A DNA stretch of 3,280 nucleotides from Dictyostelium discoideum (GCA_000004695.1 CH709164.1:1-3280); one strand, 5' to 3'; counted from the first letter of the stretch, positions 435 through 3,280 are shown. A program made the numbers and translations. The notes: generated by a model not told the origin, from the letters alone.

Positions 435-1316
435 CTCCAGTTATACAAGATTCCGCAATTTCTGTACTTTGAACTCTTTGAATCCAGCAAACATTACCTT
501 AGTTGTTTTCATGGATTATCTTACACATCTTTTCAAGCACAAACCTCCGTTAGCCTTCTCAACAATTAACGGTCATAGCTCTATGTTGAATCAGTTGTTG
601 CTCCTTAGGAATCAAACTGATATTGTTAATGATCCATTCATTACAAGAATTATAACTGGTATTCACAAGTTACGTCCTTCATCAGCAAAGTATAAAGAGA
701 TATGGGATGCAAATCAAGTATTCAAGCACTTATCTACTATCAAAGTCATCCCCAAGTTCACATACACTGCGCTATTAAACAAGACACTTGTTCTCTGTAA
801 AATGTTTGGTTTAGCAAGATCATAAGACTTGGTGAAGTGGTCGTTCAAAGGTCTCATTATTACTACTGACTCAATCAAAGGTCCAGTTATTAATGCTAAA
901 GAACAAAGAAGTGGTGTTGTTTCAATCTTATAATTAACTTCGTTAGATGATACAAACTCCCAAGTATGTCCTGTTCGCCTCCTTGCAACATACCTTAGAG
1001 CCTCTAAAGGAAGAAGAAAGCCCCATTCGGGTGACTCTGTCTTTGTTAAGAATGAGGGTGAACCTCTGGAAGTTAATGATATTAATTCAATTGTATTATC
1101 AACACTCTCAAGCTCCGGTATTGATACTAGCAAGTTCAAATCTCACTCTACCCGTTCAGCTATGGCTTCTCTGTGCTGTTGTCCAATAATGTTCCTTTCC
1201 ACGTTGTCAATAAGATGAGTCGCTGGAAATCAAACGATACTGTAGATACCTTCTACGATAAAAGAATCATTGGTGAAAAATCTGGTGCCACTATTTATAC
1301 GTTTTTATTTTCTTAA
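370..1316 (+). pseudogene. DIRS-like tyrosine recombinase (integrase-family YR), copy 1. It is disrupted by in-frame TAA codons at 823-825 and 931-933 and by a 2-bp (tg) insertion frameshift at about 1172-1175, which moves the reading frame from +1 to +3.
   Basis: The translation carries the YR N-terminal core-binding-like segment (SWEPSTLKVY...FRNFC...VVFMDYL...FSTINGHSS). Box I reads GLARS*DLVKWSF, with the TAA at 823 sitting at the usual Glu of R-x-x-E-L. A K-E-x-R hairpin region (NAKEQRSG) and box II H-x-x-R (KFKSHSTRSAMAS) follow. After the frameshift come RWKSNDTVDTFYDKR, which holds the W and the catalytic Tyr, and a stop at 1314-1316. The ORF track splits this gene across 370..825 (+1) and an off-frame 947..1189. 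Confidence 0.75.
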
Positions 1317-1417
1317 AAATTTCGCAAAACTCATAAAAATAAGTGTTTTCGACCCTTCACAACTTTCTGCACTGTGTCGGTTCGGAATTTTTATGTTTTT
1401 CGACCTTGCGCAATGAT
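1284..1417 (-). repeat. Truncated inverted copy of the distal roughly 120 bp of the 291-bp HSE-bearing unit. It behaves like a right-terminal inverted repeat abutting the YR stop codon.
   Basis: By manual alignment, 1284-1417 is the reverse complement of about 2266-2386 and 2561-2699 at roughly 90% identity, including ggtgccactatttatacg matched to cgtataaatagtggcac. The homology stops abruptly after caatgatcg at 1417. Confidence 0.85.
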
Positions 1418-2100
1418 CGAAGACAGGGGCCTCACGCATGCTAACCAAAGCAAAAGCTTTATTAAGTAAAATAAAAATACTGTTCGATATTATACGAACG
1501 AGCCTTCGTAAACGACGCATGTCTGTGATTATAGCAAACACGGACTCCCTTAACTGGGAGCCTTACTATGCCCCCATACGTTTTTCAACTATACACTATC
1601 TCTGTATAATACTCACTTATTAAAGGAATACCCATGCAAACACTCATTTTAAACTGGAAGGCGATTCAGTCGACCGACCAAGGTTTACACCCGAGAGCAA
1701 AACCAATGACTTGACTATAAACAGGACATTGTCGGTGAATTATTTGAACCAACTGATATCCACCCTGATATCACGTGGACTGTACTAGATTACAGTCATC
1801 GCGACTATACAGGCGATATCTATTACGATCTCTTTGCCTTTAAAGGTGACGATGATGTAGGTGACGAAGAGAGTCAGTTAGAGACTCTGTTATACCTCAC
1901 TACACCAACTGAGATAGATTTTAACTTATTGGCGTTTGGGGCAATTTCAGTAATTGACGATGGTGAAGGGGATTGACATTCTTAGTAGATGGTATGGCAA
2001 TCGTGGAATTACGGTTTACTGTAGAATCAACCTGTTGTAGAATCATATATACTGACACAACGGTCATTGGACTTTATACAGAACAGGGTCAGGGGTGTTT
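1418..2100. other. Unique central segment at roughly 40% GC, lying between the two inverted repeat blocks. I cannot place its origin. Its last roughly 30 bp show weak similarity to the unit end.
   Basis: I find no match to any other part of the window. GC content is clearly higher than in the flanking AT-rich repeats. It contains small direct repeats: ctgatatc twice (1753 and 1765) and tgtagaatca twice (2019 and 2035). Confidence 0.5.
1710..1976 (+). other. Met-less open frame of 88 codons bounded by TGA codons. It is acidic (GDDDVGDEESQLETLLYL...). It could be an exon or captured coding fragment, or chance.
   Basis: I translated frame +3 codon by codon from 1710 to 1973 and found no stop. 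A TGA sits at 1707-1709 and another at 1974-1976. There is no ATG, which is why the ORF track does not list it. Confidence 0.2.
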
Positions 2101-2198
2101 ATGACAGTCTTTGAGTTTGCGAAATTTATATTATCATATATATATATTATGAATAACATTTATTTATTTGAATTTCCCAAATATTTAAGATAATTTTT

Positions 2199-2216
2199 TA
2201 GAATGTTCTAGAACAT
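2199..2216. promoter_or_regulatory. Heat-shock element in unit 1. Three alternating perfect pentamers (aGAAt gTTCt aGAAc) sit inside the 14-bp perfect palindrome atgttctagaacat. An A-rich TATA-like run (aagaataaaaaaa) follows.
   Basis: tagaatgttctagaacat matches the Pelham consensus CTnGAAnnTTCnAG at 13 of 14 positions. The palindrome was checked by hand. Confidence 0.55.
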
Positions 2217-2489
2217 GAGAAGAATAAAAAAATTTCGAAAGAAAAGTAAAAATTTCGAACCGGCACAATGACGCGATCATTGCACAAGGTCGAAAAACTT
2301 AAAAATTCCGAACCGACACTATGCACAAAGTTGTGAAGGGTCGAAAATACTTATTTTTTTGAGTTTTGCGAAATTTTTAAGAAAATTAAAAATTTAATTT
2401 ATTAAATTATATTTTATATTAAATATATATATATATATTATGAATAACATTTATTTATTTGAATTTCCCAAATATTTAAGATAATTTTT

Positions 2490-2507
2490 TAGAATGTTCT
2501 AGAACAT
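2490..2507. promoter_or_regulatory. Heat-shock element in unit 2, identical to the unit-1 HSE and 291 bp downstream of it.
   Basis: The same tagaatgttctagaacat sequence, followed by gagaagaataaaaaat. Confidence 0.55.
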
Positions 2508-2740
2508 GAGAAGAATAAAAAATTTTCGAAAGAAAAGTAAAAATTTCGAACCGGCACAATGACGCGATCATTGTCTAAGGTCGAAAAACTGAAAAATTCC
2601 GAACCGACACTATGCACAAAGTTGTGAAGGGTCGAAAACTCGTATTTTTTTGAGTTTTGTGAAATTTTTAAGAAAATAAAAACGTATAAATAGTGGCACT
2701 AAAAAACTAAAACAATTTGATTTATGGAATTCCGACTTAG

Positions 2741-2756
2741 GGCGGGTGGGATGGGA
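2741..2756 (+). other. Canonical G-quadruplex motif GGGCGGGTGGGATGGG, preceded by TTAGGG.
   Basis: Four GGG runs with loops of 1, 1 and 2 nt, read directly. The surrounding sequence is more than 85% AT. Confidence 0.5.
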
Positions 2757-2818
2757 CTAATATATATATATATAATATAAAAATAATTTAATAAATTAAA
2801 TTTTTAATTTATATTATC

Positions 2819-2842
2819 ATATATATATATATATATATATAT
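2819..2842. repeat. (AT)12 microsatellite. Shorter (AT)7-8 tracts sit at 2423-2438 and 2761-2776.
   Basis: Read directly. Confidence 0.9.
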
Positions 2843-3280
2843 TATGAAATTTGGACGACAGTATTTAAGAAACCACCAGATTTTTCACCAATGATTCTTT
2901 TATCGTAGAAGGTATCTACAGTATCATTTGATTTCCAACGACCCATCTTCTTGACAACGTGGAACGGAACGTTATTTGACAACAGCAGAGAAGCCATAGC
3001 GGAACGGGTAGAGTGAGATTTGAACTTGACAATATCAATACCTGACTTTGAGAGTGTTGATAGTACAATTGAGTTCCTCTCATTAACTTAGAGAGGTTCC
3101 CCCTCATTCTTAATAAAGACAGAGTCACCCGAATGGGGCTTTCTTCCTCCTTTAGAGGCTCTAAGGTATGTTACAAGGTGGCGAACAGGGCATACTTGAG
3201 AGTTGGTATCATCTAATGATGATAATTCTAAGATTGAAACAACACCACTTCTTTGTTCTTTAGCATTGATAACGTGGCCC
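2842..3280 (-). pseudogene. DIRS-like tyrosine recombinase, copy 2. This is the 3' portion; the 5' end runs off the window. It has an in-frame TAA (seen on + as tta at 3088-3090), and its C-terminus is altered by the 174-bp segment, with the stop falling at 2842-2844.
   Basis: The reverse complement of 2874-3280 aligns to copy 1 at 880-1290 at roughly 90-92% identity. Its translation is ...NAKEQRSGVVSILELSSLDD...KPHSGDSVFIKNEGEPL*VNERNSIVLSTLSKSGIDIVKFKSHSTRSAMASLLLSNNVPFHVVKKMGRWKSNDTVDTFYDKRIIGEKSGG... The frame is continuous through box II and the Tyr motif because this copy has no tg insertion. Confidence 0.75.

Follow-up and report, generated by a model that had tools for sequence, protein, structure and literature searches.

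The window analysed here, a stretch of 3280 nucleotides, is one whole unplaced contig (CH709164.1) of the Dictyostelium discoideum AX4 reference assembly, a Sanger whole-chromosome-shotgun assembly of 2005. It contains remnants of DIRS-1 (Dictyostelium intermediate repeat sequence 1), which was reportedly described by Cappello et al. in 1985 and is the founding tyrosine-recombinase retrotransposon of D. discoideum. The element is reviewed in PMC7192593 and PMC3950715. Two fragments of its tyrosine recombinase (YR) gene lie in the window in opposite orientations, long terminal repeat (LTR) sequences lie on their inner sides, and between the LTRs there is a core with the features of bacteriophage DNA. 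Taken together, the data make it very probable that the window is a scrap of a centromere-type DIRS-1 pile-up, in which two dead, independent copies face each other across a phage fragment, and that no switch is present. The inverted layout is the already known, ordinary debris of DIRS-1 inserting into DIRS-1, in the species in which the element was discovered, and the phage-derived core is the one unexpected element.

Results

Map of the window

The map was built from BLAST of the window against a 21-kb locus of a D. discoideum chromosome assembly (L001), which carries several DIRS-1 copies and comes from another strain's genome, and from the inspection of element termini. L001 includes a full-length DIRS-1 (15789-20603; 4815 bp, with RVT_1 and RNase H matches), the length given in the literature being 4814 bp (PMC7192593). 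Along with two further DIRS-1 cluster loci (L004 and L005, GCA_054859385.1), the cluster loci compared amount to 63 kb of DIRS/Skipper-type arrays in all. The L001 copies are 92-96% identical to the window, and those of L004 and L005 only ~86-93%. The core was compared with L002, a 2890-bp Logan contig that encodes a protein of 173 aa (P0121). DIRS-1's internal complementary region (ICR) is used here as defined in PMC7192593. The features are as follows (window coordinates; a dot means that no strand is assigned).

1-396, strand., left flank, non-DIRS, very AT-rich (GC 15-28%)
90-434, open reading frame (ORF) of 114 aa with an Asn run
397-1287, +, copy 1 YR, 3′ 890 bp (DIRS-1 nt ~3451-4339), a 5′-truncated pseudogene
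1285-1419, +, copy 1 right LTR, inner 135 bp (DIRS-1 nt ~4510-4645)
1420-1433, strand., 14 nt, AAGACAGGGGCCTC, matching in alignments neither the LTR nor the phage relative L002
1434-1535, +, phage-like segment A, 96% identical to L002 728-829, with the start of a phage ORF (MLTKAKA...)
1529-2110, +, phage-like segment B, 86.8% identical to L002 1599-2182
2111-2123, +, relic of an older LTR, TTGAGTTTGCGAA, 13 nt, matching the internal LTR sequence at 2360-2373
2124-2126, +, shared ATT, the integration site of the next element; the canonical LTR reads ...TTGAGTTTTGCGAA-ATT-TTTAAG
2124-2386, +, left-type LTR (U1) of a plus-oriented DIRS-1, with the intact outer terminus ATT-TATATTATC...
2384-2725, -, copy 2 right LTR, complete, with the intact 55-nt right-specific terminus at 2387-2440
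2757-2848, -, copy 2 ICR; its plus strand corresponds to the circle junction, with the right end at 2757-2806, ATT at 2807-2809 and then the left end
2874-3280, -, copy 2 YR, 3′ 407 bp, running off the contig end
1400-1450, sequence across the left edge of the core, GCGCAATGATCGAAGACAGGGGCCTCACGCATGC
2090-2140, sequence across the right edge of the core, TATGACAGTCTTTGAGTTTGCGAAATTTATATT

The inverted arms belong to two separate DIRS-1 copies

Local alignment of the left part of the window with the reverse complement of the right part matched 880-1287 (+) to 3280-2874 (-) with 371 identities in 406 positions (91.4%), a similarity far beyond chance. The alignment consists of the blocks 880-885, 886-1171 and 1174-1287 paired with 3280-3275, 3273-2988 and 2987-2874, separated by one 1-bp and one 2-bp indel, and the same inverted repeat was recovered by a repeat scan. 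An earlier sequence-only reading of this DNA, which had taken 880-1290 (+) and 2874-3280 (-) for the same YR segment at about 90% identity, was thus correct, the reverse-complement alignment being present. The shared segment is the 3′-terminal ~400 bp of the YR ORF, which is followed in each arm by the right LTR, in opposite orientations.

When the arms were compared with other genomic copies in L001, the identity reached 94.1% for copy 1 and 96.3% for copy 2, vs. 91.4% to each other. Since each arm is closer to copies elsewhere than to its partner, the arms are independent DIRS-1 copies. Their structures are different as well: copy 2 has the ICR and copy 1 has lost it, and the LTR is complete in the former and 135 bp long in the latter. 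Collapse of repeats during assembly, which had been named as a possible source of the symmetry, does not account for arms that differ by 9% and are each nearer to other DIRS-1 copies. The palindromic look is therefore due to two separate dead DIRS-1 copies whose 3′ ends (the YR ORF and then the right LTR) face each other. DIRS-1 fragments placed side by side in inverted orientation recur in L001, L004 and L005.

DIRS-1 homology starts abruptly at ~391-397, and the YR sequence of copy 1 (397-1287) is 95.7% identical to L001 19239-20127. Translation of 397-1316 gives a tyrosine recombinase with 86-94% amino acid identity to many D. discoideum hypothetical proteins; it matches Pfam PF00589 (E 1.7e-9) and keeps the ARS.DL and HSTRS motifs as well as the C-terminal W...Y region. 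The reading frame is destroyed by TAA codons at 823-825 and 931-933 and by an insertion of 2 bp (1172-1173). The LTR fragment at 1285-1419, with 90-96% identity to right LTRs in L001, breaks off at 1419 and is joined straight to the YR ORF through a ~170-bp deletion that includes the ICR. The junction lies at 1287/1288 with GTG microhomology, at a site where the canonical copies read CTGGTG-GTTTCTT...AGTG-CCACT. Copy 1 is a non-mobile derivative devoid of the ICR, a region found experimentally to be essential for retrotransposition (PMC7192593).

Deletions of the ICR segment (~170 bp) recur with slightly varied breakpoints: CTGGTG-CCACTATTT in the window and CTGG-CTATTT at L001 ~3947, and a third one, CTGGTGG-CTATTT, is inferred for another strain (proteins P0001 and P0056, C-terminus GEKSGGY). 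The similar junction at L001 ~3947 indicates that the ICR deletion of copy 1 is a genuine genomic variant. The recurrence could mean that the site is a deletion hot spot, through a hairpin or template skipping, or else that segmental duplication has spread a small subfamily devoid of the ICR.

Nested insertions in the right half of the window

The LTR sequences of the window are related to each other both as inverted and as direct repeats: 1285-1419 recurs in inverted form at 2565-2699 (91%) and 2274-2391 (93%), and 2136-2391 and 2427-2682 are direct repeats (96%) lying 291 bp apart. The proposal that each YR copy is followed by inverted repeats bearing a heat-shock element (HSE) therefore holds for the repeats, but not for an HSE after copy 1. 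The perfect HSE GAAnnTTCnnGAA occurs only at 2201-2213 (in U1), at 2492-2504 (in the copy 2 LTR) and at 226-238, outside the repeats, and an HSE scan revealed no canonical HSE in the 135-bp LTR fragment of copy 1. Likewise, the repeat does adjoin copy 1, whereas copy 2 is set apart from its own by a 174-bp spacer (2700-2873), which holds the ICR and is missing from copy 1. Nor is 2127-2699 a single block of repeat units, because 2124-2699 is made up of two LTRs that belong to two different elements.

Inspection of the termini revealed two insertions, each into an LTR. At the first junction, the relic TTGAGTTTGCGAA is followed at 2124 by the U1 terminus, where an uninterrupted LTR instead goes on as ATT-TTTAAG. 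This terminus aligns with the starts of two left LTRs in L001 as well as the left half of the ICR, and U1 as a whole is 94-96% identical to the left LTRs in L001. At the second junction, copy 2 has inserted at AAT 2384-2386 (ATT on the minus strand) and so cut off the inner side of U1. Read on the plus strand, the right terminus of copy 2 begins as AAT-TAAAAATTT from 2384, after ...TTTTTAAGAA, and an uninterrupted LTR goes on as AAT-AAAAACG. Thus, the left- and right-specific termini found in the window belong to two different elements, and no element is present with both of its LTRs.

From this second junction onwards, 2384-3274 is collinear with four L001 copies at 94-96% identity. The ICR of copy 2 is defined by an inverted match of 2383-2414 to 2779-2810 (97%) and a direct match of 2123-2147 to 2806-2830 (100%). 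The YR fragment of copy 2 is 96% identical to the L001 copies and matches PF00589 (E 5.4e-9); it has an in-frame TAA at 3090-3088 in addition to the natural stop at 2844-2842.

An ATT was found at every intact DIRS-1 terminus examined (2124-2126 and 2384-2386), and this trinucleotide marks the middle of the circle-junction sequence in the ICR (2807-2809). It is also seen at element boundaries in L001 (15787-15789, 20601-20603 and 4256-4258), where one element sits inside the right-specific end of its neighbour, again at an ATT site. The (TA)n tracts of the LTR termini and the ICR (2136-2147, 2427-2438, 2761-2774 and 2819-2842) vary in length between copies, and the left end within the ICR has a longer TA run than the real left terminus at 2124-2150.

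According to the current model, the YR integrates a circular intermediate of the element at a species-specific trinucleotide, and DIRS-1, which is confined to centromeres, prefers to insert into existing DIRS-1 (PMC7192593). Both nested junctions, with an intact end at an ATT within an LTR, are the signature expected for YR-mediated integration of such a circular intermediate. The order of events is then as follows: an old LTR was present, of which only the relic at 2111-2126 is left; a plus-oriented element inserted into it; and copy 2, in the minus orientation, subsequently inserted into the left LTR of that plus-oriented element.

These results settle the earlier suggestion of two DIRS-like elements, joined tail to tail or nested. 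The elements are of the DIRS-1 kind, and nesting is borne out in the right half by the two insertions into LTRs at ATT sites. A tail-to-tail join is not what the window contains, since the two copies are separated by a truncated LTR, 14 nt, ~677 bp of phage-like DNA, 13 nt left over from a third LTR and a left-type fourth LTR.

Homologies of the core to jumbo-phage DNA

The core of about 680 bp had been considered unique sequence; its homologies indicate instead that 1434-2110 is phage-derived. A stop-free stretch within 1700-1975 has one homologue, the 173-aa protein P0121 encoded on L002, with 81% identity. L002 itself has compact, overlapping ORFs on the same strand and a GC content of 46%. 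Its last ORF matches phrog_2921 (E 1e-19) and has homologues in 165 records of phiKZ-type jumbo phages, some of them annotated as a head structural protein. Moreover, L002 is collinear with genes 00131-00137 of the Erwinia jumbo phage pEa_SNUABM_54 (MW879341.1, 272.6 kb), which also encodes a 27%-identical homologue of the 173-aa protein. In an exhaustive HMMER search of 1.84 billion representatives, the P0121 family comprised five clusters only, with some members on 268-kb contigs; its sole Dictyostelium member was P0060 (DDB_G0294286, partial, strain AX4), which is itself a spliced translation of the window. Judged by these homologies, the core at 1434-2110 is a piece of the genome of a phiKZ-like jumbo phage.

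The fragment is rearranged relative to L002. Between segments A and B, the window lacks about 770 bp of the latter (830-1598). This deletion lies at the imperfect 7-nt direct repeats TTATAGC/TTGTAGT (1529-1535 in the window vs. 823-829 and 1599-1605 in L002), truncates one phage ORF and removes another one entirely. Signals of the bacterial type are found in 1543-1640, namely the hairpin GGACTCCCTTAACTGGGAGCC, TTTTCA-17-TATAAT (10 of 12 matches) and AAGGA. They correspond to a predicted sigma-70-like promoter at 1582-1610 and a Shine-Dalgarno sequence at 1623-1628, its AAGGA lying 6 nt before the ATG at 1634, with which the pseudogene of the 173-aa phage protein begins.

This ORF is disabled by a TGG to TGA change (1707-1709), by frameshifts of +1 (~1690), -1 (1967/1968) and -2 (2022/2023), and by the loss of its 3′ end at 2110. 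When four distant homologues were used as outgroups, the replacements specific to the window fell at conserved residues (G53D, W157R, D142Y and D6L), while those specific to L002 were conservative. Substitutions between the window and L002 are distributed over the three codon positions as 17:9:37. The enrichment at the third position indicates that the core and L002 acquired most of their differences as functional phage genes. An AT-biased drift of the phage-like piece relative to L002 was not significant (39 vs. 26 changes).

The core had no match in the 63 kb of cluster loci and so is not a repeat found there. At blastn sensitivity, no match was obtained in 5426 E. coli genomes, PLSDB plasmids or phage DNA, and searches with protein patterns and exact 38-42-mers detected no closer phage relatives in IMG/VR, GTDB representatives or JGI metagenomes. 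The empty E. coli, plasmid, GTDB, IMG/VR and JGI searches exclude the core as an element of the cloning host or a common contaminant.

Discussion

Origin of the core: capture or chimera

On the assembled contig, the core is flanked on both sides by broken DIRS-1 LTR sequence, at 1419 and 2111. We see about an even chance that the phage fragment is truly integrated in the D. discoideum genome, having been trapped between two DIRS-1 LTRs, both broken, and having decayed there since. A second explanation, to which we give serious weight though less than an even chance, is that the core arose as an artefact in vitro: contaminating phage (or bacterial) DNA would have come to lie between Dictyostelium fragments through a chimeric plasmid clone or a mis-join. 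As a corollary, the palindromic contig as such would not exist in the genome, while each of its DIRS-1 halves would.

The position and the state of the fragment argue for capture. A chimera needs two independent joints, both of them within a DIRS-1 LTR; since LTRs make up well under 1% of the genome, random co-ligation at both ends is improbable. For comparison, DIRS-1 as a whole accounts for ~3.3% of the genome (PMC7192593). The fragment is also unlike a working phage, with its nonsense codon, three frameshifts, the 770-bp deletion that truncates an ORF, and radical changes of conserved residues. The lack of matches in E. coli genomes, plasmids, GTDB species representatives, IMG/VR and JGI metagenomes likewise speaks against a contaminant caught in a clone. 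The look of the joints also counts for capture: the 14 nt at one edge, an overlap of no more than 1 nt at the other and the microhomology deletion inside the fragment are what end joining tends to leave.

Several points weigh against capture, and some of them directly favour the chimera. The phage piece is seen only on this one contig of the Sanger era, which is small, unplaced and unique. None of the three cluster loci (L001, L004 and L005) contains it, no matching protein was found from newer Dictyostelium assemblies or traced in other Dictyostelium proteomes, and an exact look-up of nine window ORFs in a collection of 15 billion proteins returned none besides the AX4 model. The core is still phage-like in GC content (41-43%), and together with the concentration of substitutions at the third codon position (17:9:37) this means that little neutral decay is demonstrable. 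In addition, some of the frameshifts fall within short homopolymer runs and may stem from read errors. Finally, the joints are blunt: 14 nt at 1420-1433 match neither side, and the homology at 2110/2111 does not exceed 1 nt. Co-ligation in vitro would give joints of the same kind. The 14 nt are either a junction filler or locally diverged phage sequence. Nothing of weight stands against the DIRS-1 layout.

If the capture is real, it might have proceeded by end joining at a double-strand break in the gene-free centromeric retrotransposon array. We infer that the joints at 396/397, 1287/1288, 1419-1434 and 2110/2111, as well as the 770-bp deletion, are illegitimate events of the end-joining type. 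A more speculative route would be template switching by the DIRS-1 reverse transcriptase, in which the ICR deletion, the loss of 770 bp from the phage sequence and the LTR/phage joint would all represent skips in the same direction on one strand.

The inverted arms are unlikely to form a switch

The sequence-only reading had also raised the possibility that the 410-bp inverted repeats support inversion of the promoter-bearing 1.6-kb core in the manner of fim or the 2-micron plasmid. We regard a working cassette of this kind, flipped by a tyrosine recombinase, as highly improbable. It is true that inverted repeats of 406 bp with 91% identity bracket two LTRs with perfect HSEs, and that promoter activity of DIRS-1 LTRs is reported in PMC4482531 and PMC3950715. 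However, both YR copies are pseudogenes with in-frame stops, copy 1 being also frameshifted and 5′-truncated and copy 2 incomplete. The repeats are diverged coding DNA rather than crossover sites, the site inferred for DIRS-1 being the LTR-terminus/ATT circle junction, and the greater similarity of each arm to other genomic copies than to its partner means that there has been no concerted maintenance. Both LTR promoters within the core segment face right, to the dead copy 2, and a flip would only swap one pseudogene for another. Besides, similar inverted juxtapositions are scattered in L001, L004 and L005. With dead recombinases, no crossover sites and promoters pointing in the same direction, inversion of the core as a switch finds no support.

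The resemblance to fimB/fimE-fimS, Hin/Gin and FLP/FRT is thus limited to inverted repeats around a promoter-bearing segment and to the tyrosine-recombinase gene family. In those systems the repeats are short, conserved crossover sites, whereas in the window they are 406-bp diverged pseudogenes, accompanied by neither an intact recombinase nor a regulated flanking gene. Occasional inversion through homologous recombination between the 91% repeats could occur, as with any inverted pair of transposons, which does not amount to a designed switch.

We give almost no credence to a local inverted duplication of one DIRS-1 3′ end (by fold-back or hairpin repair, or as an assembly or amplification artefact): the layout is indeed symmetric, with the YR 3′ end and then an LTR on either side of the core, but the arms have diverged by 8.6% and show two indels, closer relatives of each exist elsewhere, the ICR is found in one arm only, the LTR is 135 bp long on one side and complete on the opposite one, and the core is bordered by unlike structures at its two ends. 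The divergence pattern effectively refutes such an origin.

Relation to known systems and significance

The two window copies resemble DIRS-1 in their 92-96% nucleotide identity and collinearity with the full-length element, in the YR ORF with its Phage_integrase domain, in HSE-bearing LTRs with non-identical outer ends (~33 nt on the left and ~55 nt on the right), in the ATT at junctions between element and target, and in ICR halves complementary to the left and right LTR termini. Unlike the full-length element, both are incomplete 3′ fragments with stops, truncated at ~397 and 3280; copy 1 lacks the ICR and most of the right LTR, and no reverse transcriptase, RNase H, methyltransferase or GAG sequence is present in the window.

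The DIRS-1 clusters of L001, L004 and L005 likewise show fragments in both orientations, nested LTR insertions, truncations and internal deletions, but the clusters described so far consist of DIRS-1 and other Dictyostelium transposons, whereas the window holds a segment that appears to be phage-derived. Relative to the phiKZ-like phages and pEa_SNUABM_54, the window retains only ~677 bp, with the 770-bp internal deletion and a disabled ORF. To our knowledge, no bacteriophage-derived segment inside a DIRS-1 cluster has been described, and a literature search retrieved no report of one.

If real, the capture would resemble the end-joining capture of foreign or organellar DNA, as in nuclear segments of mitochondrial or plastid origin (NUMTs/NUPTs) and filler DNA, where a short non-host fragment lies between host sequences. 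Here, too, there are joints of minimal homology, a few unmatched bases and an internal microhomology deletion. The decay into a pseudogene and the insertion-tolerant, gene-free array are shared both with NUMT/NUPT-type capture and with the "you are what you eat" transfer proposed for phagotrophs. The difference from both is that the apparent donor is a jumbo bacteriophage rather than an organelle or a bacterium, and that a single contig is concerned.

The nested junctions provide clean sequence-level examples of intact DIRS-1 termini at ATT sites inside LTRs. They fit the model of integration of a circular intermediate by the tyrosine recombinase, for which direct biochemical proof is still awaited. 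If the core is real, phage DNA from prey bacteria can reach the nuclear genome of the amoeba and integrate into it. Centromeric transposon arrays would then act as a sink for phage DNA, and the core would be a fossil of phage entry into the nucleus of a bacterivorous amoeba. If the core is an artefact, DDB_G0294286 and the contig deserve a flag, as an unknown ORF, transposon and phage pseudogene are spliced together in the model.

Other features of the window

The left flank (1-396) gave no blastn or tblastx match to the DIRS-1 copies in L001, L004 and L005, and the left-flank ORF (1-434) had no protein homologue at E<=0.01 among 5.8 billion proteins. Rfam and tRNA scans of the window returned no match and thus indicate neither a tRNA-targeted element nor a structured RNA. 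The gene model DDB_G0294286 is an annotation artefact. The model (P0060) extends over 3-1973 and splices together four unrelated pieces: an ORF at 3-431, two stretches of DIRS-1 YR pseudogene and, from the phage pseudogene, 43 codons (1845-1973). In L004 and L005, the DIRS-1 copies are interleaved with genes bearing weak rve (integrase) matches, which represent other LTR retrotransposons residing in the same arrays.

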